This document shows positions 2,662-62,942 of a DNA stretch of 64,000 bases, piece by piece. Made by a program: the position numbers and the translations under genes. Within the stretch, counting starts at the first letter, position 1, and each line of letters opens with the position of its first letter. The stretch is from a bacterium (lineage in GTDB: Bacteria > Patescibacteriota > Patescibacteriia > JBDRHN01): assembly GCA_043816765.1 (NCBI GenBank), contig JBDRHN010000023.1, positions 17,353-81,352 on the forward strand, in the 5' to 3' direction. The notes below the pieces were generated by a model that was given only the letters and a program-made list of their open reading frames with translations, did not search any database and was not told where the DNA came from.

Positions 2662-3318
2662 TTATTTAAATTTCTCTCCTTTATAAATCCATACTTTTAC
2701 GCCAATAGCTCCAAAAATAGTTCTTGCTGTTCCCTTCGCATAATCAATTTTCGCCCGTATTGTCTGCAAAGGCAACTTTCCCGAGCTCAAACTTTCGCTT
2801 CTTGCTATCTCTACTCCATTTAGCCTTCCTGAAACATTAATTTTTACGCCTTTCGCGCCAGCCTTTTCAACGCGACCGATAGATTGTTTCATTACTTTTC
2901 TAAATAACACCCTCTTTTCCAGCTCAGCTATAATTCCTTGCAACACAATATTCGCATCAAGACTTGGTTTATCCACCTCTTTAACATCAATATTCAATAT
3001 ATACTTTTGACCAGTCCTGCTGGTAAATTTTTCAATAAATTTATTATATAACTCTTTTTTCAAATCTTCTATTCCAGCTCCGCCGCGACCTATAATAAGA
3101 CCGGGTTTCGCGGAATAAATAATAATATTAATATTATTGCGAAGACGTTCAATGTCTATGGCAGACATTGCGGAGTTCTTAAACTTAATTTCAAGATGAT
3201 CTCTTAATTTTACGTCTTGCTCCAATAAGACACTATAATCTTTTTTTGAAAACCAACGAGAACTCCAATTCACTGAAGCGCCTATGCGAAATAATTTTGG
3301 ATTAACTTTTCTTCCCAT
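2662..3318 (-). CDS. rpsC: 30S ribosomal protein S3
   Basis: MGRKVNPKLFRIG... KH domain GRGGAGIE. Confidence 0.95.
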   Translation of the reverse strand: MGRKVNPKLFRIGASVNWSSRWFSKKDYSVLLEQDVKLRDHLEIKFKNSAMSAIDIERLRNNINIIIYSAKPGLIIGRGGAGIEDLKKELYNKFIEKFTSRTGQKYILNIDVKEVDKPSLDANIVLQGIIAELEKRVLFRKVMKQSIGRVEKAGAKGVKINVSGRLNGVEIARSESLSSGKLPLQTIRAKIDYAKGTARTIFGAIGVKVWIYKGEKFK

Positions 3319-5704: not shown

Positions 5705-5785
5705 TTTTGAAATTGTTATATAATTATATTGCTAATTAATTTTAGGACTTCCGCGTTTTTTGTTAAAATTTCAGAAATCAACTCA

Positions 5786-6526
5786 TTATTTTGCCGCCGG
5801 CTTCAGATAAGTCTTTTCAATCACTTTTAAACTATCCAACGGCATAATTAAATATTTATATTTCAACACATCAACAACATTCAAACTATCTGCCTTAATA
5901 ATTTCTATGTTTTTTAAGTTTCGCGCTGACAAAAGAATCGGCTCCTGTTTTTGGGGAATTATTATCAAAGATTTGGCAATTTCTTTGATTTCCAACATAT
6001 TTTTCTCAGCTTGTTTATTATTTAATTTCTTGTCTTTGGCTTTATTTATCGGTTTGATTTTTTTAACTTTTGTTTCAAAAACTGGCAATTTTTTTAAAAT
6101 ATCAAGAAGTCTTCCTGTCTTAGCCTTGTCTATATCCAAATCTTTAAGCAAAATAATCCAACCGCTTTTAGCCTTGTCGCTTAAACACATAAACAGAGCT
6201 TTTTTCTTCATCTTCTTATTAATCTGTTTTGTAAAATTCCTTGTGTTGCGCGGTCCGAATGTGACCCCTCCGCCTACCCATAACGGCGAACGAATAGAAC
6301 CATGCCTTGCTCGCCCAGTCCCTTTTTGCTTCCAAGGTTTTTTACCTCCGCCGCGCACTTCTCCGCGATCTTTTGTGTGCGCTAATATCTGCCTGGCATT
6401 CGCCAATTGAGCCTCCGCCGCTTGATGAACTAATCCGATGTTTAATTCAATATCAAAAATATTCGGATTTAATTCTATATCCTCAACAACTTCGCCATTT
6501 ATATTGTAAACTTTTGTCTTATTCAT
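5786..6526 (-). CDS. rplD: 50S ribosomal protein L4
   Basis: GGGKKPWKQKGTGRARHGSIRSPLWVGGG motif; start trimmed to 6526. Confidence 0.92.
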   Translation of the reverse strand: MNKTKVYNINGEVVEDIELNPNIFDIELNIGLVHQAAEAQLANARQILAHTKDRGEVRGGGKKPWKQKGTGRARHGSIRSPLWVGGGVTFGPRNTRNFTKQINKKMKKKALFMCLSDKAKSGWIILLKDLDIDKAKTGRLLDILKKLPVFETKVKKIKPINKAKDKKLNNKQAEKNMLEIKEIAKSLIIIPQKQEPILLSARNLKNIEIIKADSLNVVDVLKYKYLIMPLDSLKVIEKTYLKPAAK

Positions 6527-9702: not shown

Positions 9703-10806
9703 TTAACCAATTATAACCTTTTGCGCCAAACTTTGAAAAAAATGAAACTTGGCGGTAATCAAAAAAATAATAATCGCAACTGCCGCCAAACTTTGAAAAA
9801 TAACAGCCGGATGTTGAATTTGAATTTTTATTAAAATATTTAAAATCAAAATCAATGCTAAAAAACCCAAACCAAAAAACATAAAATAATCAAAATATTT
9901 TAAAACGACGTTAATTAAACTAGACTTAAAATTCAAAGCAGATTGCTTTACTTCAACTTCTTTAACTTTTGGCTCAATCGGATAATTCTCCCCAAGATCA
10001 ATCTCCTCGCCCATAACTTCAATAGGCAAATTGTTTTCTTGATTTTCTTTCAAACCATCCAAGCCCGCAACCCCCCTTATTGGCGGGACTTCCCCCGTCG
10101 CGGGGACAGGTTCGGCGACGCCGCCGAACCTGCCCCCGCTTGTTTTCTTGATTTCTTGATTAACGTCCCGTTCCTTTCCAAACATCTCAACCATAACCAT
10201 AGTTTTCTTGCCATTCATCTCTCCAATTAAAACAGCTACTCCGATATCATTAAATTTTGGGTTGACAATATTTTTTTTATGAGTCGCGCTTGCCAAAAGA
10301 GCTAAATGCGCCACTTCGGCAGAAGTGAAATTCATTGCTAAATTCTCGCCGGCATTCGTATAGTCATATTCCTTTTTGTCAATCCACTGCCACGGTTTTT
10401 TGCCGTCTGACGTATCATGCGCGAAATATTGATTAAGTAACATATCTTGAGCTTTATCTTTTGCGGCCTTTTCTAAAATTGGGTTAACTTTCAAGGGGGG
10501 GACACCCTCTTCAATTCTTGTTTTATTGGCAAGCTCAATGATTTGATGATAAATATCTGTTGAAAGATAAACAAAATTAGGATATATAATAAACAAAAAC
10601 AGAGTTATAAAAACTTTAAACATAATTAAAAGAGCGACAATCGCGCTCAATGATTTTGAATGCAAAATTTTTGGGCAATAATCATTTTCGGCTGTGGGAA
10701 TTAACCCGTCTTTTGCCTTTTTTCTGATAGAATTGTTTAAAAATTTCGGTTTTTGAACACTTTTTTTCATAGATATAACTATAACAATTTTTTTGAATTT
10801 TGTCAA
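9703..10806 (-). CDS. membrane-anchored CAP (SCP/PR-1-like) domain protein carrying an in-frame GC-rich palindromic insertion
   Basis: N-terminal TM helix, CAP-like region (NQYFAHDT...GENLAMNF), Gly/Pro linker encoded by palindrome 10079-10142, C-terminal TM helices. Confidence 0.7.
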   Translation of the reverse strand: MTKFKKIVIVISMKKSVQKPKFLNNSIRKKAKDGLIPTAENDYCPKILHSKSLSAIVALLIMFKVFITLFLFIIYPNFVYLSTDIYHQIIELANKTRIEEGVPPLKVNPILEKAAKDKAQDMLLNQYFAHDTSDGKKPWQWIDKKEYDYTNAGENLAMNFTSAEVAHLALLASATHKKNIVNPKFNDIGVAVLIGEMNGKKTMVMVEMFGKERDVNQEIKKTSGGRFGGVAEPVPATGEVPPIRGVAGLDGLKENQENNLPIEVMGEEIDLGENYPIEPKVKEVEVKQSALNFKSSLINVVLKYFDYFMFFGLGFLALILILNILIKIQIQHPAVIFQSLAAVAIIIFLITAKFHFFQSLAQKVIIG

Positions 10807-14840: not shown

Positions 14841-14897
14841 AATAAAAACGTAGAGACACGCCATTGGCGTGTCTCTACGTTTTTATTTTAAATATTC

Positions 14898-16763
<1,866 letters not shown>

Positions 16764-16807
16764 TTATTAAAGTCCTAGCGGAAATTTTAGAATAGAACCA
16801 CTTTCAA

Positions 16808-16836
16808 CTTAGACGAGGCAGTGCCTCGTCTCTACA
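16808..16836. repeat. 29-bp palindrome family A (GTAGAGACGAGGCA[C/G]TGCCTCGTCTCTAC), copy in groES-groEL spacer
   Basis: TTAGACGAGGCAGTGCCTCGTCTCTACA. Confidence 0.8.
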
Positions 16837-16849
16837 TTCAATCATCGCG

Positions 16850-21525: not shown

Positions 21526-21584
21526 GTAGAGACGAGGCACTGCCTCGTCTCCAGCCCAAGACGCGGCAGTGCCTCGTCTCTACA
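21526..21584. repeat. family A palindrome, two adjacent copies between the purP paralogs
   Basis: GTAGAGACGAGGCACTGCCTCGTCTC and AAGACGCGGCAGTGCCTCGTCTCTACA. Confidence 0.85.
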
Positions 21585-25407: not shown

Positions 25408-25802
25408 ATATGAAATGCTTTGAATAATAATGGCGCATTGCGAAGATAAAAGGCTGGTTTGCTGGTGCTAACCGTTCAATGTCATTTTAACATTCTTACA
25501 ATGAAGTCTGTCCGTATTTTTCCACGACTTCCCACGCCATTTCAAACATTGCTTTTTGAATATTCGCAAAAAACTGGCTTGTGATCATAATGCCCATTCT
25601 GTTGGGCTTTTGTGGCAGGACTATTACTACTTTGTCTTCATAAATATTTATCTCGCAATTAAATAGATAATTAATTTTTTAAATCATCATCATTATACTC
25701 CAAACACCAATGTTTGGCAAAAAATCAACACTCTTGACATATTTTTTAGTTATGTTATCCTATACATATATGCACAAGATAAACAAACTAAATACTGATA
25801 AA

Positions 25803-26342
25803 ATGGCTAATATAGCCCAAATAGGTGAAATTATGTTTCATGCCAAAGATTTGGCTGGTTTGTGGCGAATAGAAAATACAAATACTTTATATAATACAAT
25901 AGCAAGGTATGTGAAAAAAGGGGCATTATTTAGAATTTACAAAGGATTTTATTCCATAAAACCTATTGATGAAATTGACCCTTTTGTACTGGGAACCAAA
26001 GCCATTCATAAATATTGCTATATAAGCGCGGAAACTGTTTTGACAAACAAAGGGATTATTCAACAAAATATTGATCAAATTACTTTTATGGCAAGCAAGA
26101 CAAAAAAATTAAAAATAGGCGATAATAATTATTATGTGAGACAGCTTGATGAAAAATATTTATATAACTCGGAGGGGATAAACGCTAAAGATAATTTCAA
26201 AATAGCTTCATTGGAGCGAGCTGTTGCTGATATGCTTTATTTTAATCCAAAAACTTTTTTTGATGCTAAGAATTTAATTAACTGGCAAAAAATGAGGGCT
26301 ATCCAAAAAAAAATCGGATACCCTTTGACCGATAGACAATAA
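25803..26342 (+). CDS. abiEi: AbiEi-family antitoxin / transcriptional regulator
   Basis: AbiEi_4-like wHTH N-domain; immediately upstream and co-oriented with AbiEii; start trimmed to 25803. Confidence 0.6.
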   Translation: MANIAQIGEIMFHAKDLAGLWRIENTNTLYNTIARYVKKGALFRIYKGFYSIKPIDEIDPFVLGTKAIHKYCYISAETVLTNKGIIQQNIDQITFMASKTKKLKIGDNNYYVRQLDEKYLYNSEGINAKDNFKIASLERAVADMLYFNPKTFFDAKNLINWQKMRAIQKKIGYPLTDRQ

Positions 26343-26347
26343 ATGAT

Positions 26348-27136
26348 ATGATTATATCAAACTCAAAAGATGCAATTCATAAAGCATGGCTTTTCCGCTT
26401 GCTTAACGCAATTTATGATAATGCGTTTTTAGCTAATAATTTATATTTTAAGGGCGGAACTTGCGCGGCTATGCTTGGATATTTAGATCGGTTTTCAATT
26501 GATTTGGATTTTGATTTGGCTGCTGAAAACAAATCCCCCCAACCCCCCTTTGCGAGAGGGGGAAATATTGAAAAAAATTTGGAAATAATATTTAAAAAAT
26601 TGGGGCTTTCTATCAAAGACAGAAGCCAAAAAGCGCCTCAATATTTTTTAAAATATCCAAGAAAAGAAAACGAGAGAAATACAATTAAAATAGATATTAC
26701 AACAGATGCGCCAAAATCCAATATTTATAAACCAATGATTTTTAAAGATATTGATAGAATTATAAATTGCCAAACCATAGAAACGATGTTTGCAAATAAA
26801 TTGGTTGCGCTTATTGATAGGTTTGAAAAAAATGGATCTATCGCAGGACGTGGTTTATATGATATTCATCATTTTTTTATCAAAGGTTTTAGATATAACA
26901 AAGAGGTAATTATTGAAAGAAGAAAAAAAGATTTGATTTCTTTTTTTGATGAGTTGATTTTATTTATAGAAAAAAATATAAATGAAACTGTTATAAATCA
27001 GGATTTGAATTATCTTTTGCCAAATGATAAATTTCAGGCGATACGAAAAGTTTTAAAAAATGAAACAAAAATGTTTTTAGAAGACGAGATGGGGATATGC
27101 GAAAAAAAATTAATACCAATGTCTAATGCGGCATAA
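26348..27136 (+). CDS. abiEii: AbiEii/AbiGii nucleotidyltransferase toxin with in-frame GC-palindrome insertion
   Basis: LYFKGGTCAAMLGYLDRFSIDLDFD signature; insertion KSPQPPFARGG at 26531-26566. Confidence 0.75.
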   Translation: MIISNSKDAIHKAWLFRLLNAIYDNAFLANNLYFKGGTCAAMLGYLDRFSIDLDFDLAAENKSPQPPFARGGNIEKNLEIIFKKLGLSIKDRSQKAPQYFLKYPRKENERNTIKIDITTDAPKSNIYKPMIFKDIDRIINCQTIETMFANKLVALIDRFEKNGSIAGRGLYDIHHFFIKGFRYNKEVIIERRKKDLISFFDELILFIEKNINETVINQDLNYLLPNDKFQAIRKVLKNETKMFLEDEMGICEKKLIPMSNAA

Positions 27137-32442: not shown

Positions 32443-33444
32443 CTATAACGTCGTAATCGGCCTTGACTGCGTGATATAAAATTTACCTTTTGAAAAAGCC
32501 CATTCAATGTCTTGCGGTTTTTTGTAATGCTTTTCAATTTGACAGCAAATTTTGGACAGTTCAATTATTTGCTTGTTATTTAATTTCTGTTTTTCTTGTT
32601 TTGATTTTGAAACAGGTTGCCACACAATTCCTGAACTGGTTGAATTTTTGCGAACCAACATTTTTTCTTGCTCTGCAATATTTATATCTAAAATTTCAAA
32701 TTCTCCATCGTAGAGACGAGGCACTGCCTCGTCTCTATACTTGTTCACAATATAACTGTCCGGCGTTATCTGTCCTGAAACTATCGCCTCTCCCAGTCCG
32801 TATCCGGCTTCAATGATCATCTGATTTTTATCTTTTGTGATGGGGTGAACAGTGAAACAGACCCCTGATATTTCTGACTGGATCATTTTCTGAACCACAA
32901 CGGCAACGCCGATTTTTTGGTCAACTAAATTTTTTTCATAACGGTAAAAAATCGCTCTTGAGGTATAAAGCGATGACCAGCATTTCTTAACGTTTTTTAA
33001 AAGCGTTTTTTTTGTTGTGTTTAAATATGTTTCCAGCTCCCCGGCCCATGACGCTACTATTGAATCTTCTGCTGTGGCTGAACTGCGCACCGCCACAGAT
33101 TTTGCTTTAAGTTTTTTAAATTCCGCGTTAATTTCGTTAATTAAAACTTTCTGAATTTTGGTGTCGTTTATAATATCGCGAATAATATTAGACGCGCGGT
33201 CAATGGAATTTATGTCATCAAAATTTATTTGAGATAATTGGGCTTTTATTTCCAGCCCGACTTCCGCTGTCTCCGCGCGCGATCTCGCGCTTAAAAAATA
33301 ATCAAATGCGTCGGCTAAAATAACAAAACCATTCGGAACCGGAATTTTTACGTTAATCATTTCTCCGAGCGACGCGCCTTTCCCGCCGGCGGTTTTAATG
33401 TCTCTTGCGGAGATTTTTGAGAATGGGGAGGTGAATTTTGGCAT
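32443..33444 (-). CDS. PPDK_N-type ATP-grasp protein (PEP synthase / rifampin phosphotransferase N-domain family), stand-alone, with in-frame palindrome insertion
   Basis: GGKGASLGEM motif, RSSATAEDS, DIEWA..QSRPIT; insertion YRDEAVPRLYDGE at 32710-32738. Confidence 0.8.
   Translation of the reverse strand: MPKFTSPFSKISARDIKTAGGKGASLGEMINVKIPVPNGFVILADAFDYFLSARSRAETAEVGLEIKAQLSQINFDDINSIDRASNIIRDIINDTKIQKVLINEINAEFKKLKAKSVAVRSSATAEDSIVASWAGELETYLNTTKKTLLKNVKKCWSSLYTSRAIFYRYEKNLVDQKIGVAVVVQKMIQSEISGVCFTVHPITKDKNQMIIEAGYGLGEAIVSGQITPDSYIVNKYRDEAVPRLYDGEFEILDINIAEQEKMLVRKNSTSSGIVWQPVSKSKQEKQKLNNKQIIELSKICCQIEKHYKKPQDIEWAFSKGKFYITQSRPITTL
32710..32738. repeat. family A palindrome inside PPDK_N CDS (in frame)
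   Basis: GTAGAGACGAGGCACTGCCTCGTCTCTAT. Confidence 0.85.
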
Positions 33445-38783: not shown

Positions 38784-38902
38784 ATAATTTAGCTAAATAA
38801 TTAGTTTGGATATACTCAAATAATTATATAGTATTTTTTGGGTGCAGTCAAATTTTTAAAAAAAATAGCGGCTTGTCTGCCGCTATGTTGAGAAAAAAAA
38901 TT

Positions 38903-38944
38903 TTCGGGTAGGTTCGGCGACGTCGCCGAACCTACCCGAAAATT
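38903..38944 (-). terminator. 42-bp perfect GC-rich palindrome acting as efp terminator
   Basis: TTTTCGGGTAGGTTCGGCGACGTCGCCGAACCTACCCGAAAA; core shared with 10109-10130; T-run follows on minus strand. Confidence 0.6.
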
Positions 38945-41314: not shown

Positions 41315-42925
41315 ATGTCCCCAAAAAACAACCCAATAAAATACTTCTTTATTTTAGGCAACAACCCCGCTCTTTCGTTGGCTGAAATTTTCGGGTTGCT
41401 TAATTCTGGAGATAAAGACTTCCGCCTCGCGGGAGTCTCTCCGCAGAGGACTCCCGCGAGACAAGGTTGTCATACTCCCACGTCGGAGTCCCCCGCCTGC
41501 GGGCGGGGAGACTCCGACGGAGCACCGAGTCAAAATTTTAATTTACATAAAAATGCCAGAATAATAACTTTTTGTAAAGATTTTTTGATTATTGAATTAG
41601 ATAAAAAAATTGACGCGAATAAGTTGATGGGGGTTTTGGGCGGGACTATTAAAATAGGGATTATTTTAGAAAGCCAAAATGCAAATATTGAAACGCGCGA
41701 TTTGATTGAAAAAATTAATATTGATAAAAATAAAAAATTTTATTTTGGTTTTAGCGCTTATGGTAAAATTGGCGCGAATTTTAAACGGCTTGCAATGGAA
41801 ATAAAAAAAAAATTAAAGCAAGATGGGACATCTTCGCGCTGGGTAATCTCGCGCGAAAAGCAGTTGTCTTCTGTCGTTGTTAAAAAAAATAAATTAGTTG
41901 GTGAAAATGGAACGGAGTTTTGTGTTTTGAAAAATAAAGATAAAATTTTTTGGGGCAAGACTTTGGCTGTTCAGGAATTTGAAGATTATGGACAAAGAGA
42001 TTTTTATCGACCCGCAAGAGATCCGAAATCAGGGATGATTCCCCCAAAACTTGCGAATATGATGATCAATTTAGCGCGCGCTGAATTGGACTTTAAAACA
42101 AAAAACGGCATAACTCTTTTAGATCCGTTTTGCGGAAGCGGGACGATTTTGCAAGAAGCGGCGATTTTGGGGATTAATAAAATAATCGGGAGCGACTTGA
42201 GCGAAAAGGCGACGCGAGATTCGGAACAAAATTTGAAATGGCTGGAAGAACGTATTGACATTTCACCGCAGTCCGCTAACGGAAAAAGTGGTATTGCGCG
42301 GATAGATGCGACGACGTCGCCGCATGCGGGAAAGAGGCTGAACACCCCGCTGGACGTTCAGCGCCTAGGGCGCGAGGACTCCTGCGCAATTTCAATTTTT
42401 AATTCTGACGTCAGAAAAATAAGCGAACTAATTCCCGCCGGTTCTGTTGATTTAATAGTTGCCGAACCTTATCTGGGACCGCCTTTATCTGGGGGTGAAA
42501 ACGAAAATAGAATTAGCCAAATTGTTCAAGAGCTAAGCGAGTTATATTTATCAGCTTTTAAAGAGTTTAAAAAAATTCTAAAAAAAGACGGGTGTATTTG
42601 CATGGTCTGGCCGGTCTTTGCTATTTGCAAAAAAAATATATTTCTGCCGATTTTGGGTGAGGTAGAGAAACTGGGGTTTAGGCAGGTTAGGTTTGATAGC
42701 GGCAATTATGTTAATTTAATTTTTGATGGCGGTTGTAAAACGCAATTTGCCGCTCCCGCGCCGCAGTCCCCTGACGGGAGACTGCGGCGGAGCACAGGTA
42801 ATGATGGCGATGAATTAAAAAATTTTAAAAAAAATCTCGCTGATAATTTTAGCGAGCGTGGAAATATTGTTTACGGACGAGATAGGCAGATTGTCAAAAG
42901 AGAGATTGCGATTTTTAAAATATAA
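41315..42925 (+). CDS. THUMP-domain SAM-dependent RNA methyltransferase (UPF0020/Trm11-like) with three in-frame GC-rich palindromic insertions
   Basis: LLDPFCGSGTILQEAAILG SAM motif, DLIVAEPY; insertions at 41423-41528, 42300-42385, 42748-42810. Confidence 0.75.
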   Translation: MSPKNNPIKYFFILGNNPALSLAEIFGLLNSGDKDFRLAGVSPQRTPARQGCHTPTSESPACGRGDSDGAPSQNFNLHKNARIITFCKDFLIIELDKKIDANKLMGVLGGTIKIGIILESQNANIETRDLIEKINIDKNKKFYFGFSAYGKIGANFKRLAMEIKKKLKQDGTSSRWVISREKQLSSVVVKKNKLVGENGTEFCVLKNKDKIFWGKTLAVQEFEDYGQRDFYRPARDPKSGMIPPKLANMMINLARAELDFKTKNGITLLDPFCGSGTILQEAAILGINKIIGSDLSEKATRDSEQNLKWLEERIDISPQSANGKSGIARIDATTSPHAGKRLNTPLDVQRLGREDSCAISIFNSDVRKISELIPAGSVDLIVAEPYLGPPLSGGENENRISQIVQELSELYLSAFKEFKKILKKDGCICMVWPVFAICKKNIFLPILGEVEKLGFRQVRFDSGNYVNLIFDGGCKTQFAAPAPQSPDGRLRRSTGNDGDELKNFKKNLADNFSERGNIVYGRDRQIVKREIAIFKI

Positions 42926-42926
42926 A

Positions 42927-43385
42927 TCAGGTGGTAATATAAATTAAACAAATAATAATAACCAATTGCAACAATAAGCCCTGCTTGACTGTCATTTTTG
43001 AGGGTATATAATTATGAATATAGCCATGAAAACTGCTAAAAGGCTTTAAAAATTTGGGTTTAAAAATTTGATAATATATATTTAAAACATCTGGTAAAAT
43101 ACTGCCGAGAACAGCCCAAAAAATATGAGCTGATTTTGGAATTATTGTATATGTAAAAATATAAAGAAGATAAAAAATAGTAATGAAAGCGTCAAGAATG
43201 TTTAGACTCAAAATCAAATCTCTATTAATGCGGCGGCTAAACCAATGCATTAAATTTCCGTCTCCATGGGGGATGAAATCTAAAACAAAATGAGAAACGA
43301 CCGCTAAAAGAAAAATTCCAGTAGCTGATGTTGTTATGCTCTTGGCGATAATAACGCCGATGGCTGTGTGAACGGAGATTAACAT
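42927..43385 (-). CDS. membrane protein, YdjM/DUF457-like metal-dependent hydrolase (tentative)
   Basis: 4-5 TM helices, HFVLDFIPHGD motif. Confidence 0.45.
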   Translation of the reverse strand: MLISVHTAIGVIIAKSITTSATGIFLLAVVSHFVLDFIPHGDGNLMHWFSRRINRDLILSLNILDAFITIFYLLYIFTYTIIPKSAHIFWAVLGSILPDVLNIYYQIFKPKFLKPFSSFHGYIHNYIPSKMTVKQGLLLQLVIIICLIYITT

Positions 43386-43471
43386 AATTTAGTAATTAGT
43401 AACTAGTAATCAGTAACTAGTAAATTCCTATCCCTTATTACTGATTACTAGTTACTAATTACTAAAACATG

Positions 43472-43545
43472 TAGCAGGAGTGGGGCTTGAACCCACGACC
43501 TTGGCGTTATGAGTGCCACGCTCTAACCAGCTGAGCTATCCTGCC
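43472..43545 (-). tRNA. tRNA-Met (anticodon CAU; Ile-lysidine not excluded)
   Basis: manual cloverleaf: acceptor GGCAGGA/TCCTGCT, D-arm GCTC/GAGC, anticodon loop CTCATAA, T-arm GTGGG-TTCAAGC-CCCAC. Confidence 0.75.
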
Positions 43546-46064: not shown

Positions 46065-46093
46065 GTAGAGACGAGGCACTGCCTCGTCTCTAC
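46065..46093. repeat. family A palindrome between 7TM gene and ATP-grasp gene
   Basis: GTAGAGACGAGGCACTGCCTCGTCTCTACA. Confidence 0.85.
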
Positions 46094-49462: not shown

Positions 49463-50647
49463 ATGCAACAAAAAGGAAAATTCGGACAATACGGCGGGGT
49501 GTTCTCGCCGGAAACATTGATGCCCGCTTTGGAAGAGCTTGAAGCGGCTTATTTTAATATTGTTAAAAAAGATAAAAAGTTTAATGCTGAATTAAATTAT
49601 TTATTGCAACAATACGCGGGCAGACCGACGCCGCTTTATTTTGCGGAGAATTTGTCAAAAAAATTGGGACGTAAAATTTATCTCAAACGAGAAGACTTGT
49701 TGCATGGCGGAGCGCATAAGACTAACAATGGTTTGGGGCAAGGTTTGCTTGCCAAATATATGGGAAAGAAAAGGATTATAGCGGAAACGGGGGCGGGGCA
49801 GCATGGGTTTGCCGTAGCGATGATTGGCGCGTTTTTGGGGATACAGACGGAAGTATATATGGGCGTGGAAGATATAGAAAGGCAAAGAATGAATGTTCTG
49901 CGAATGAGGATGTGCGGGGCGAAAATTAATCCGGTTGAAATTCGTCCGGGGGTTGGTTCCCTCAAAGACGCGACTAACGAGGCGATGCGCGACTGGATAA
50001 CAAATGTTCGCACTACTTATTATATAATCGGTTCAGCGGTCGGGCCTCATCCGTATCCAACTATGGTGGCGCAATTTCAGAGAGTTATCAGCAAAGAGAT
50101 AAAAAAGCAGAGCATAAAACAGATCGGTAAATTGCCTGATACTGTGATTGCTTGCGTTGGCGGAGGCAGTAACGCAATCGGCGCTTTTTATGAATTTATT
50201 AATGATAAAAAAGTAAAGTTAATAGGCGTTGAGCCTGCCGGTTTGGGTGTTAATACGACTAAAACCGGAGCGTCAATCGGCAAAGGACGAGATGGAATAT
50301 TGCACGGTTCGCTGTCTAAAGTTCTTCAAGATAAAGACGGGCAAATTAAAGAGGCGTATAGCGTTTCCGCGGGGCTTGATTATCCGGGGGTTGGTCCGCA
50401 ACATGCTCATCTCGCAAAAACAGGGCGCGCGAAATACGAGGCTGTTACCGACAAAGAGGCGTTGGACGCGTTTGAATTGTTGTCAAAGTGCGAAGGAATC
50501 ATTCCCGCGCTTGAATCGGCTCATGCTGTTGCTTATGCTGTGAAATATGCTAAAATATGTCGGAAGGATGAGGTTGTGGTGGTTAATTTGTCGGGGCGGG
50601 GAGATAAAGATATGGAACATGTGAGCTCTCTAATAGGACACAGATAA
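49463..50647 (+). CDS. trpB: tryptophan synthase beta chain
   Basis: full-length TrpB (PLP Lys region [17 protein letters not shown]). Confidence 0.96.
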
Positions 50648-50740
50648 ACACAGACTAAAGCGCAGATAAACACAGATAAAATTATAAAAAATCAGTGTTC
50701 ATCTGCGCCCGAATGGTCAGTGTTTATTTGTGTGCTATTA
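50638..50740 (+). repeat. ~100-bp CAGATAAACACAG-family repeat, copy 1 (overlaps trpB stop)
   Basis: near-identical to 51138-51240; internal imperfect palindrome GCGCAGATAAACAC...GTGTTCATCTGCGC. Confidence 0.85.
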
Positions 50741-50747
50741 TATAAAT

Positions 50748-51155
50748 ATGCAAAATTATCAACACTCAGAATTGACCAAAAAAATTATTTCCTGTTTTTA
50801 TCAAGTCTACAATACTCTCGGTTATGGGTTTTTAGAAAAGGTCTATGAAAATTCTTTAATAAAAGAGTTGAATAAAAATGGATTAAAACCAGTTCAACAA
50901 ATGCCGATTAAGGTTTATTATGAAGGTGAATTGGTTGGTGATTATTTTGCAGATATTGTTGTTGAAAATTTGGTGATATTAGAACTAAAAGCGCAGGAAC
51001 TTCTATGCCCTGAGAACGAAGCTCAGCTATTGAACTATTTAAAAGCAACGAAGTATGAGATTGGTTTATTGTTAAATTTTGGAACAAAGCCAGAGATAAG
51101 GCGAAAAATATATAGCAATAATTTAAAGAATTCAACACAGATAAACACAGACTAA
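50748..51155 (+). CDS. GxxExxY protein (predicted PD-(D/E)xK nuclease fold)
   Basis: LGYGFLEKVYENSL motif plus DIVVEN..LELK; flanked by direct repeats; start at ATG 50748. Confidence 0.75.
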   Translation: MQNYQHSELTKKIISCFYQVYNTLGYGFLEKVYENSLIKELNKNGLKPVQQMPIKVYYEGELVGDYFADIVVENLVILELKAQELLCPENEAQLLNYLKATKYEIGLLLNFGTKPEIRRKIYSNNLKNSTQINTD

Positions 51156-51240
51156 AGCGCAGATAAACACAGATAAAATTATAAAAAATCAGTGTTCATC
51201 TGCGCCCGAAGGGTCAGTGTTTATTTGTGTGCTATTTAAA
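51138..51240 (+). repeat. ~100-bp repeat, copy 2 (direct repeat of copy 1)
   Basis: approximately one mismatch over ~100 bp relative to copy 1. Confidence 0.85.
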
Positions 51241-51243
51241 GAT

Positions 51244-52041
51244 ATGTCATTGATAGATAAAAAATTCAAACCAAACCAAGGAACGCTTGCCATTGGTACT
51301 GTTCCCGGATATCCCGACATGGAAACGAGTTTTGAAATCGTTAAGGCTATTGTTTCCGGCGGGGCGGATATTTTGGAGATGTCTTCTTCTTTTTCTGATC
51401 CTATTGCTGATGGTCCGACACTGCAACAAGCGCACGCGCAAATTTTAAAACATGGCGTTACAAAAGCGCAAGTGTTTAATTTTTATAAAAAAATAAAAAA
51501 AAATTATCCTGAAATTCCAATATTTGTGATTGAGTATTCTAATATTGTTTATACCAACGGCATTGATAATTATTATAAAAAATTAAAAGAGGGCGGGGTT
51601 GATTTGCTTTTAATTCCGGATGTTCCGCTTGAGGAGCTAAAGCCCTACAGCGCGGCGGCTAAAACATACGGAATCGGCCAGTCTTATATAGCGGCGCCGA
51701 CAACGGATAATGAAAGGCTGAAAAAAATTATTCCAAATGTTAACGGTTTTATATATGTGGCAACGGTAACAGGGATTACCGGCGCGAGAAAAAATGTTGA
51801 GGATGAGACTAAAAAGCTTTTGCGAAGAATTAAAACACAGACAAAAATTCCATTGGTCGCGGGGTTTGGAATCAGTAAGCCGGAACACGTAAAAACAGCT
51901 TTGAAATCTGGCGCAGATGGGGTTGTGATCTGTTCGCAGATTATTAATATTATTAATAAAAATTTGAAAAATAAGAAGAAGATGTTGAGTGAGGTTGAGG
52001 GGTTTGTGAAGGAAATGAAAAAAGCCTGCAGTCATTACTAA
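51244..52041 (+). CDS. trpA: tryptophan synthase alpha chain
   Basis: TrpA TIM barrel; start at ATG 51244, because the ORF-track N-terminus lies in the repeat. Confidence 0.92.
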   Translation: MSLIDKKFKPNQGTLAIGTVPGYPDMETSFEIVKAIVSGGADILEMSSSFSDPIADGPTLQQAHAQILKHGVTKAQVFNFYKKIKKNYPEIPIFVIEYSNIVYTNGIDNYYKKLKEGGVDLLLIPDVPLEELKPYSAAAKTYGIGQSYIAAPTTDNERLKKIIPNVNGFIYVATVTGITGARKNVEDETKKLLRRIKTQTKIPLVAGFGISKPEHVKTALKSGADGVVICSQIINIINKNLKNKKKMLSEVEGFVKEMKKACSHY

Positions 52042-52166: not shown

Positions 52167-52337
52167 TTCTTTCACCTCCTTTCAATGGAAAAATATTTAA
52201 TCACAAATTAAATTATATTATGATTTTTGTCAAGAGAAAATAAAACACCTGTCATTCTGAGCGACTTTTACCGCGAACTTGAAGAAATAAAAAAATTTAA
52301 TAATTGCATAAAATTGAAAAACAATCAGAATTAAGCG

Positions 52338-52495
52338 AAGAATCCCGCGGTTGTTGCAGGAACAACGAGATTCTACTCGTCGGCTCCATAGTCCCGAACG
52401 AAGTGAGGGCTATGGAGCCGATATGCGCGCGATAGCAAAACATGCCGGCTCCATAGCCCCCGCTGGCGCGGGGGACTATGGAGCCAACGCGTATT
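52338..52495. repeat. GC-rich palindrome cluster (GGCTCCATAG..CTATGGAGCC hairpins x2 and others)
   Basis: hairpins at 52383-52420 and 52447-52485; partial copy 62137-62150. Confidence 0.8.
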
Positions 52496-52627
52496 AAATC
52501 TAAAATAAATACCAAGCAAGGTGCTGGACACCCAAGGGGGTGTTTGGTTGGCGGTTGAAAAATTTATAAAATAAATAAAGCCCCCGCAAGCTTGAAGTGA
52601 AAATAAGACATTGCGGGGGGGGGGCGG

Positions 52628-54166: not shown

Positions 54167-54703
54167 ATGTATTTTGTAAAATTAAAAACCAAAAAAGATA
54201 CTGTTGGTTTTGCTAATCAAATAGCTAATATTTGCAACAATCAAACCCCCCAACCCCCCTTGTCAGGGGGGCTATATGTTGTTGCCCTCATTGGCGAGCT
54301 TGGGGTTGGGAAGACTTTTTTTACGAAAGCTTTGGGAAAGGCGCTTGGGGTTAAAGAAACGATTAAAAGTCCGAGTTTTAATTTGATGAAAGTTTATGAA
54401 ATACCGGGCAGACGAACCGTAGAGACGAGGCAGTGCCTCGTCTCTACACAAATCAAAACGTTAGTTCATGTTGATTGTTATCGTTTGAATAGTGCTGAGG
54501 AGTTAATTGATATTGGGCTTTTGGATTATTTTGGATATAATAATACTCTTATTGTTATTGAGTGGGCTGATAAAATAAAAAAAATCTTGCCGAAAGATGC
54601 AGTTTGGGTAAAATTTAAAATGGGAAAAGATGGGGTGAGAATGGCGGCGGTGAATTTAAAACCAATGTCATTCCAAAAAATTTTTTCCATCAATATTAGT
54701 TAA
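54167..54703 (+). CDS. tsaE: tRNA t6A biosynthesis ATPase TsaE with two in-frame palindromic insertions
   Basis: Walker A GELGVGKT; SPSFNLMKVYE...LVHVDCYRL TsaE signature interrupted by RRTVETRQCLVST (54419-54448); QTPQPPLSGG insertion at 54243-54272; start at ATG 54167. Confidence 0.78.
   Translation: MYFVKLKTKKDTVGFANQIANICNNQTPQPPLSGGLYVVALIGELGVGKTFFTKALGKALGVKETIKSPSFNLMKVYEIPGRRTVETRQCLVSTQIKTLVHVDCYRLNSAEELIDIGLLDYFGYNNTLIVIEWADKIKKILPKDAVWVKFKMGKDGVRMAAVNLKPMSFQKIFSINIS
54419..54448. repeat. family A palindrome inside tsaE (in frame)
   Basis: GTAGAGACGAGGCAGTGCCTCGTCTCTACA. Confidence 0.85.
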
Positions 54704-57527: not shown

Positions 57528-57537
57528 ACATTTATAT

Positions 57538-57592
57538 GGGTAGATGGAAGCCCTCGCTTCCACCGGCGCGAGCGAGGGCTCGCGCCTACCCG
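57538..57592. repeat. GC-rich palindromic element (GGGTAG...CTACCCG family)
   Basis: outer arms shared with 38903-38944 element; inner GCGAGCGAGGGCTCGCGC. Confidence 0.7.
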
Positions 57593-57617
57593 GATAAAAA
57601 TTTCTCTGCAAAAATTT

Positions 57618-62818: not shown

Positions 62819-62860
62819 CGTGTTTCCAAATGTTAATAAAATAACCTAACGACGCATTTT

Positions 62861-62888
62861 GTAGAGACGCATTGCAATGCGTCTCTAC
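62861..62888. repeat. family A variant palindrome (GTAGAGACGCATTGCAATGCGTCTCTAC)
   Basis: perfect 14-bp arms with altered core. Confidence 0.75.
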
Positions 62889-62942
62889 ATTGGACGCTCG
62901 GTTTTCACGAACCGTTCAATGTTAAAATTCCTTTGCAACAAA

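Follow-up and report, generated by a model that had tools for sequence, protein, structure and literature searches.

Repetitive extragenic palindromes (REPs) and REPINs are thought to be mobilized by RAYT (HUH/Y1) transposases, and REPINs are reported to be conserved over the long term without a demonstrated host function. Intragenic copies of GTAG- and CGTC-tagged REPs were described by Di Nocera et al. (PMC3733652), with dimers encoding 20–30 amino acids (aa) and clusters encoding as many as 82 aa; certain genes have received two insertions, and the largest numbers are found in Rickettsia conorii (RPE-4, RPE-6) and Opitutus terrae. In-frame insertions of Rickettsia palindromic elements (RPEs) are summarized in a review (PMC10969869) of MITEs, or miniature inverted-repeat transposable elements. 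A full-text search of literature in which not all journals are covered yielded no description of in-frame palindromic repeats in Patescibacteria, the Candidate Phyla Radiation (CPR) or Parcubacteria. Here we describe such repeats in a stretch of 64,000 nucleotides (the window, meaning the whole stretch of DNA analysed) from an AT-rich, Patescibacteria-like genome, in which the gene for a Trm11-like RNA methyltransferase has very probably been colonized three times by REP/RPE-like, non-autonomous palindromic elements that are translated through and tolerated. One repeat family, family 1, was searched for with covariance model R1; P and L numbers denote homologous proteins and comparison loci, respectively. 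The gene and its inserts are as follows.

41315–42925, forward strand: host coding sequence, Trm11-like (UPF0020) RNA methyltransferase, an intact open reading frame (ORF) of 536 aa
41414–41530, forward strand: insert 1, 117 nt, 39 codons, aa 34–72; an inverted doublet of two family-1 hairpins plus spacer
41422–41464, reverse strand: family-1 copy A, stem CGCGGGAGTC/GACTCCCGCG; R1 57.1 bits, E = 9e-12
41475–41525, forward strand: family-1 copy B, stem CGTCGGAGTC/GACTCCGACG; R1 50.4 bits, E = 4e-10
~42263–42391, forward strand: insert 2, a composite block, ~38 codons longer than the same site in P0004 and P0006; boundaries approximate
42728–42808, forward strand: insert 3, 27 codons (GGCKTQFAAPAPQSPDGRLRRSTGNDG), aa 472–498
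42753–42795, forward strand: family-1 copy C, stem CGCCGCAGTC/GACTGCGGCG, GAGC tail; R1 62.4 bits, E = 4e-13

The window has a GC content of 35.8% and contains 38 GC islands, three of which are the blocks in the methyltransferase gene. The gene product has a UPF0020 domain at aa 238–431 (Pfam, E = 8e-11), which is the only Pfam detection, no match to a THUMP domain being returned. The AlphaFold model of the 536-aa product (mean predicted local distance difference test score (pLDDT) of 80.9 and predicted template modelling score (pTM) of 0.83) matches archaeal Trm11 structures along its entire length (template modelling (TM) score of 0.76–0.78, normalized to the target), and its best Protein Data Bank matches are the archaeal Trm11 m2G10 tRNA methyltransferases 6zxv and 5e71 (Foldseek, E ~4e-19). 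By this model, the protein is a Trm11-like tRNA methyltransferase with a THUMP/Trm11-like fold. The full-length match makes reasonable the label of THUMP/UPF0020 methyltransferase given to it in an earlier, sequence-only reading, with Pfam supporting the UPF0020 part. The search found 1836 homologues, named in their sources as Trm11, tRNA G10 methylase or RsmD-like and belonging mainly to Patescibacteria, Parcubacteria and Falkowbacteria; among the 120 listed, most comprise ~400–410 aa, compared with 536 aa here. The frame is kept throughout, as that reading had stated, and the S-adenosylmethionine-binding motif I (DPFCGSGT, aa 270–277) is intact; DPFCGSGT and EPYLG are invariant in an 18-sequence alignment. 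Outside the inserts, the ratio of nonsynonymous to synonymous substitution rates (dN/dS) is 0.18 against P0002, the closest orthologue, indicating a gene held by purifying selection rather than a pseudogene.

The palindromes listed in the sequence-only reading are all present, with coordinates right to within one base, and the extents of the blocks are revised here: insert 1 spans 41414–41530, insert 2 begins at ~42263 rather than at 42300, and insert 3 spans 42728–42808. Insert 1 comprises the arms CGCGGGAGTC..GACTCCCGCG (41428–41458) and CGTCGGAGTC..GACTCCGACG (41481–41519), belonging to copies A and B, and folds at -76.6 kcal/mol (z = -7.7 compared with shuffled sequence). Copy A scores 33 bits with R1 on the opposite strand. 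Copy B has an extended inner stem and a GAGC tail, and its 44-nt hairpin folds at -37.3 kcal/mol. Insert 3, with the arms CGCCGCAGTC..GACTGCGGCG at 42759–42789 and a folding z of -3.7, is bracketed by an 8-nt direct repeat, TGATGGCG, at 42724–42731 and 42802–42809. Across the elements, hairpin stability ranges from -29 to -37 kcal/mol per 44 nt.

Insert 2 is composed of a decayed family-1 copy (~42265–42322) and a family-2-like palindrome (~42333–42366), with GCGACGACGTCGC at 42310–42322 and CTGAAC..GTTCAG plus GCGCCtagGGCGC at 42337–42374. The equivalent site in L001, the contig encoding P0002, holds an intact family-1 copy (2526–2568, 46 bits); relative to it, the right arm of the window copy is broken by ~19 extra bases and by substitutions. 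This interruption is why R1 misses the copy, and it explains the GCGACGaCGTCGC seen by the earlier reader. The CTGAAC...GTTCAG palindrome belongs to a second family, the intact form of which, GGTGCTGGACACCC-agcg-GGGTGTCCAGCACC, is found at 16670–16701; arms and encoded peptide agree between the two. The family-2 peptide LDTPLGVQ(R/H)L is common to P0002 and to a spurious N-terminal extension of the groEL ORF. Insert 2 has a folding z of only -1.7, consistent with decay. The block, described earlier as a mosaic, is not an arbitrary one: it consists of one decayed family-1 copy and one family-2 copy.

Site lengths measured between conserved anchors in 119 orthologues place the excess length of the protein at the three insert sites:

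Site 1: 53 aa here, median 6 aa
Site 2: 50 aa here, median 12 aa
Site 3: 52 aa here, median 13 aa
Control 1: 30 aa here, median 30 aa
Control 2: 19 aa here, median 19 aa

DNA alignment with the contigs encoding the four closest relatives (L001 for P0002, L002 for P0004 and L003 for P0003; P0005 was compared as protein only) reveals a different distribution for each insert. Insert 1 is present only in the window gene and L001, with clean empty sites in L002 and L003. Insert 2 is common to P0002 only; nothing is found at site 2 in P0004 and P0006, and the site is occupied by an unrelated palindrome pair, CCCCCCTTGTCAGGGGGG and its inverse, in P0003 and by an unrelated insert in P0005 (protein alignment). 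Insert 3 is common to P0002, P0003 and P0006, and is missing from P0004 and P0005. These differing phyletic patterns imply at least three separate insertion events, in agreement with the three independent insertions proposed previously. Sharing of the segments by orthologues, which the sequence-only reading had regarded as evidence against insertion, does occur, but in the nearest relatives only, most of the 119 orthologues being without the blocks; such a distribution is expected of recent insertions that have been inherited. In 15 of the 119 orthologues, site 2 is longer by over 10 aa, which makes it a recurrent permissive spot for length change. In L003, the stem of copy C carries the compensatory pair CGACGC/GCGTCG in place of CGCCGC/GCGGCG. 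The direct repeat flanking insert 3 is ~12 nt long in L004 and 8 nt in the window. The insert-3 unit (host flank plus element) is repeated in tandem in L001, where the contig ends within the second copy (2990–3106); this shows that the unit was duplicated locally and that the assembly breaks at the repeat.

In the AlphaFold model, pLDDT falls below 50 only at residues 36–78, 317–353 and 472–481, remaining lowered to approximately residue 500, whereas the 10-residue blocks adjoining each insert have values near or above 90. All three inserts are accordingly found in low-confidence loops, the predicted disorder that the sequence-only reading had suggested looking for. Site 1 (aa 34–72) falls within the N-terminal domain and site 2 (aa ~317–359) within the Rossmann domain, between helix 297–313 and strand 358–363; site 3 (aa 472–498) is near the C-terminus. 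In this model the inserts lie in loops within domains, rather than in the linker between the THUMP and methyltransferase domains, where one of the two earlier alternatives had placed them.

The pattern of substitution between the window and P0002 separates the encoded peptides from the hairpins. The dN/dS is 1.03 for insert codons compared with 0.18 for the core, and nucleotide differences are distributed as follows:

Hairpin stems: 2/98 (2.0%)
Non-stem parts of the inserts: 52/207 (25.1%)
Position 3 of core codons: 97/397 (24.4%)
Position 1 of core codons: 53/398 (13.3%)
Position 2 of core codons: 47/399 (11.8%)

Stems differ significantly from position 3 (Fisher's test, p = 1.4e-8) and from position 1 (p = 5e-4). 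The non-stem divergence of the inserts is close to that of neutral sites, implying the same age for the inserts as for the split of the two genomes. The insert peptides drift neutrally, and the hairpin stems, the most conserved bases of the gene, have been held constant. The comparison points to preservation acting on DNA or RNA structure and not on the peptide; the stems could be maintained by selection, by gene conversion among copies or by self-correction within the palindrome.

With copies co-oriented, the family-1 consensus is CG-N-CG-S-AGTC-C-YY...RR-G-A-GACT-S-CG-N-CG-GAGC. Its architecture comprises a 10-bp outer stem, one bulged A, an inner stem of at least 3 bp and a GAGC tail, with 13 bp of stem aligned. 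The 22 copies of the family-1 set come from the window and from 13 loci (the orthologue loci and nine AT-rich metagenome contigs of 34–40% GC, the latter collected by the pattern CCGCAGTC N8-24 GACTGCGGCGGAGC); four further matches to the pattern were dropped as GC-rich chance matches (R1 of 22 bits or less). In the 22-copy alignment, 99.3% of cells are paired and compensatory double changes occur in 7 of the 13 pairs. None of 500 shuffles attains the observed pairing values, and sliding the partners by 1–3 columns destroys the signal. At the inner pair 18–37, which is outside the selection rule, CG is found 12 times, UA 7 times and GC once. None of the 22 copies departs from the G.AGTC / GAGACT.C core or lacks the bulged A, and this looks like a site read by a protein. 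The commonest arrangement is a doublet of a minus followed by a plus copy, with the GAGC tails outward, as found in insert 1, L001, L124, L125, L126, L130, L134 and L135. A left flank, GGTTGT...CTCCCRCG, was considered as part of the element and rejected, being common to the methyltransferase copies only and missing at other loci; it may be a decayed partner copy.

R1 finds exactly five family-1 copies in the 64 kb, confined to two loci totalling ~1.9 kb: three copies in the methyltransferase gene and two in the groES–groEL spacer. The 17-mer tail motif GGAGACTSCGNCGGAGC occurs four times in the window compared with 0.09 expected. As a search pattern for genome contigs, this 17-mer was too unspecific, giving only single chance matches in GC-rich genomes. 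By sequence and covariation, family 1 is a genuine repeat family that is strongly clustered in the window, and the GC islands, the folding z values, the excess of the tail motif and the five R1 copies indicate that the blocks are not due to chance. The two alternatives of the earlier proposal, that the gene is either a preferred target or a tolerant one, are inseparable here; the clustering itself is real (five copies at two loci), and site 2 is a recurrent hot spot for length. The inserts do not correspond to a widespread protein module: when the insert-1 peptide (39 aa) was searched with HMMER among 1.84 billion representatives, the orthologue P0002 and a single spurious repeat protein, P0121, were the only matches. 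A word-index search with the concatenated element-encoded peptides returned two Pth proteins only, short peptides being unable to reach significance there. Rfam, run over the gene at permissive thresholds, gave only chance-level matches and none to a ribozyme or intron.

The same families are present outside the methyltransferase. The groES–groEL spacer (16573–16849, 277 nt) holds four GC-rich palindromes: two of family 1, one of family 2 and one of GTAG type (~16805–16835). The first three are listed here.

16583–16626, reverse strand: family-1 copy with an AT-decayed interior; R1 38.7 bits, E = 3e-7; outside the model training set
16670–16701, strand not assigned: family-2 palindrome GGTGCTGGACACCC-agcg-GGGTGTCCAGCACC, an intact relative of the insert-2 palindrome
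16709–16750, reverse strand: family-1 copy with the same arms as copy C; R1 62.3 bits

The last of these had been equated with the element at 42759; the arms are indeed the same, but they lie at 16715–16744, one base from the position given, and in the opposite orientation. The copy at 16583–16626 precedes the groEL start codon by 11 nt, with its GGAGC tail ~17 nt upstream of the groEL ATG. Relatives of family 2 are also found in L001 and L003.

Among other genes, a family-1 copy is in frame in the RuvC gene of L133. The gene for peptidyl-tRNA hydrolase (Pth) in L130 carries an in-frame family-1 doublet, which forms a clean insertion of 36 aa when set against solved Pth structures, together with a palindrome of another family. 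The gene for a GlgA-like glycosyltransferase in L134 contains four elements, with family 1 in frame. A single reading frame for genic copies was considered and rejected, as the frame of the Pth doublet differs from that of the methyltransferase and RuvC copies. Within the window, the TsaE gene (54167–54703, forward strand) has two in-frame palindromes of families other than family 1. One, CCCCCCTTGTCAGGGGGG at 54254–54271, is an 18-mer that recurs unchanged within the methyltransferase insert of P0003 (L003); the other, GTAGAGACGAGGCAGTGCCTCGTCTCTAC at 54419–54447, is a GTAGAGAC...GTCTCTAC palindrome and contributes ~13 aa relative to solved TsaE. The PPDK_N gene contains a GTAG palindrome (32710–32738), and a copy of a further palindrome (10097–10140) is in frame in a CAP-domain membrane protein (ORF 9703–10806, reverse strand), downstream of the CAP domain. 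In-frame inserts are therefore present in at least two window genes (methyltransferase and TsaE), with palindromes in two further ORFs (PPDK_N and CAP-domain). From these occurrences, in-frame palindromic colonization is general in the lineage, the inserts being dispersed repeat families that are not peculiar to the methyltransferase.

Several further repeats were observed. The GTAGAGAC-variable core-GTCTCTAC superfamily occurs at 14843–14886, 21526–21554, 32710–32738, 46065–46093, 54419–54447 and 62847–62890, mostly just 3' of genes in a terminator-like position, with two copies within ORFs (PPDK_N and TsaE). The palindrome of the CAP-domain gene is centred on GGTTCGGCGAC and has a second, intergenic copy at 38901–38944 (-36 to -37 kcal/mol for the two copies). 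More GC-rich palindromes, such as GGCTCCATAGCCCCCGC...GCGGGGGACTATGGAGCC and AGCCCTCGCT/GGCGCGAGC, are found in the intergenic segments 52297–52515 and 57531–57598. Dense clusters of a different repeat, which contains TGTCATTGCGAG and GACGTGGCAATCT, surround the family-1 doublets in L124 (1973–2650) and L125 (reverse complement, 2750–3141), and all three forward frames are open over ~90 codons in these clusters.

A candidate for the mobilizing enzyme was found in a related contig. L127 carries a family-1 copy and a RAYT-like gene (5753–6379, reverse strand) 5.5 kb apart. The gene, which was missed by a strict regular expression for the RAYT HUH/Y motifs, was recovered by phmmer with E. coli RayT (E = 9e-8), and its product matches NCBIfam REP_Tyr_transpos (E = 2.8e-20, below the curated cut-off) and Pfam Y1_Tnp (23.3 bits). 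It has 140 homologues, several of them annotated as from Patescibacteria, Parcubacteria and Peregrinibacteria. In this family, encoded on Patescibacteria-type contigs (the L127 protein and homologues P0124–P0163), the HUH motif reads H-L-N (YDHLNLLIHP) in five of the six members inspected and H-V-H in P0163. The L127 gene itself contains an in-frame palindrome with 21-bp arms and has GACACYCRGTGT-type hairpins on both sides. By analogy with REP elements, the leading candidate for mobilizing family 1 would be a RAYT-like transposase of the HUH/Y1 type, working on single-stranded hairpins; template switching at hairpins would be an alternative route.

The mechanism that we propose is that short, GC-rich imperfect palindromes are dispersed through an AT-rich, Patescibacteria-like genome and its relatives, with copies landing in both intergenic DNA and genes. 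In needed genes, the survivors would be those copies that have a whole number of codons, are free of stops and land in a permissive loop at the surface. Such copies would be transcribed and translated as disordered loops that the enzyme tolerates, probably with retained methyltransferase activity, and the hairpin would be maintained at the nucleic-acid level, the encoded peptide being without selection.

Several points weigh against this account. Mobility is deduced solely from the presence and absence observed across the phylogeny. Neither a RAYT-like ORF in the 64-kb window nor a consistent target-site duplication was found, there being no convincing duplication at insert 1 and direct repeats of 8–13 nt at insert 3; the RAYT-like genes examined are flanked not by family-1 copies but by GAAGGCGA-type and other GC-rich palindromes. 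Translation through the inserts is read from the preservation of the frame. Part of the drop in pLDDT at the inserts is to be expected, as the alignment lacks depth there. The outer six stem pairs of family 1 were the selection criterion and are biased, so that unbiased covariation comes from the inner pairs only. Finally, the stems are less diverged (2.0%) than even core codon positions 1 and 2 (13.3% and 11.8%), which could also fit a rival account in which the hairpins are host-selected elements in the coding region, acting in translation pausing, in mRNA stability or as DNA or RNA binding sites. We regard that account as improbable. The invariance of the core motif and bulged A in all copies, the stability of the hairpins and the persistence of GC-rich sequence in a 36% GC genome are what it would lead one to expect. 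However, most orthologues have no inserts and close relatives such as P0004 do without them; the copies in this one gene are of mixed orientation relative to transcription (minus, plus, plus); two copies (42265–42322 and 16583–16626) have decayed; several unrelated families are found at one site, depending on the lineage; and REPINs, as the sources consulted report, are long conserved without a demonstrated host function.

Two other explanations concern the inserts themselves. The mitochondrial genomes of yeasts contain GC clusters or byps, short and apparently mobile GC-rich palindromes in an AT-rich genome that are sometimes within coding regions; byps are skipped by the ribosome, and preservation of the frame is not required. 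The inserts described here resemble them in composition and setting and form very stable hairpins, and might likewise remain untranslated, either bypassed (as with byps or T4 gene 60) or excised from the RNA. This is highly improbable: every genic copy examined (the three methyltransferase sites, TsaE, RuvC, Pth and GlgA-like) is in frame and free of stop codons, which bypassing or excision needs in neither respect, and no take-off and landing codon pair, no stop after a take-off site and no Rfam ribozyme or intron match was seen. The argument from frame preservation is partly circular, as genic copies are recognized by intact ORFs. Ordinary lineage-specific loop expansions or low-complexity indels with chance palindromes would account for the variable length of site 2 in 15 of the 119 orthologues, but not for the same nucleotide elements in intergenic DNA and in unrelated genes, for significant covariation or for folding z values down to -7.7; an assembly artefact is contradicted by these same locations and by recurrence in independent assemblies from NCBI, Logan and JGI. 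To expansion or artefact we give next to no credence. Repeated insertion of palindromic elements that are translated and tolerated thus remains the explanation that we favour.

In-frame colonization of essential genes by palindromic repeats is not limited to Rickettsia and a few Proteobacteria or Verrucomicrobia, being frequent also in a streamlined, AT-rich, Patescibacteria-like genome. Palindromic inserts inflate protein lengths and break assemblies, as at the L001 contig end, and can mislead the domain annotation and structure prediction of candidate-phyla proteins. The combination of neutral peptides and conserved stems offers a clean natural system for asking what maintains REP-like hairpins. 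A bolder possibility, unlikely though conceivable, is that Patescibacteria carry their own GC-rich, REP-like class, with an AGTC/GACT core and a bulged A, that routinely colonizes housekeeping genes and whose stems are under greater constraint than the codons of the enzyme. Were this so, it would imply a dedicated hairpin-recognizing enzyme, for which the RAYT-like family with HLN in most inspected members is a candidate, or a host function of mRNA hairpins in minimal genomes.

The window contains some other features. Long AT-rich inverted repeats, unrelated to the GC-rich families, are intergenic at 43382–43472 and 53–124 (ACATAATTTAGTAATTAGTAACTAGTAATCAGTAA and its complement). A PDDEXK_3 gene (PD-(D/E)XK nuclease superfamily; 50730–51155, forward strand; Pfam E = 2e-40) is flanked by trpB-like (49463–50647) and trpA-like (51217–52041) genes, assigned by eye. 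A 210-aa ORF, a candidate antitoxin partner, lies ahead of the gene for an AbiEii-type nucleotidyltransferase toxin (25710–27136, forward strand; Pfam E = 4e-21).

Among the known systems, yeast mitochondrial byps differ from the elements described here in being organellar, and the present elements keep the frame in every case. MITEs (Correia, QMITE and ERIC; PMC10969869) are similar in being small, non-autonomous repeats able to form in-frame fusions. They are usually longer than 100 bp, derived from insertion sequences and associated with defined target-site duplications, whereas here no consistent duplication and no parent insertion sequence was seen; the family-1 doublet has inverted ends. 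As described by Ogata et al. (2000) and relayed in PMC10969869 and PMC3733652, RPE-1 to RPE-10 comprise several palindromic families that lie in frame in unrelated housekeeping genes of a reduced, AT-rich genome, with more than one element per gene possible and with peptides compatible with the host fold. In-frame insertion without disruption is likewise found in the methyltransferase (three sites), TsaE, RuvC, Pth and GlgA-like genes. RPE-1, by the same accounts, is ~100–150 bp long, compared with 31–43 nt for a single unit and 117 nt for the doublet insert here; the present elements are strongly GC-rich against their genome and their host is Patescibacteria-like, not an alphaproteobacterium. 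The likeness is functional only: with such a host, common descent is not expected, and no sequence relationship is claimed.

The REP, BIME and REPIN elements (PMC3733652, PMC3116915) match family 1 in anatomy, with some differences. An unpaired GTAG or CGTC tag is lacking in family 1, which has its CG(C/T)C inside the stem and a GAGC tail, and so falls outside those REP superfamilies as defined; the GTAGAGAC...GTCTCTAC family starts with GTAG as GTAG-tagged REPs do, but the motif is paired with CTAC. A high fraction of family-1 copies is genic, and no RAYT gene was found beside them. The features in common are imperfect palindromes of 20–40 nt, in which the core is conserved and a bulge and a short tail are present, compensatory stem variants, inverted dimers, in-frame intragenic copies with several in one gene, and, in related contigs, RAYT-like genes flanked by palindromes, though not by those of family 1.

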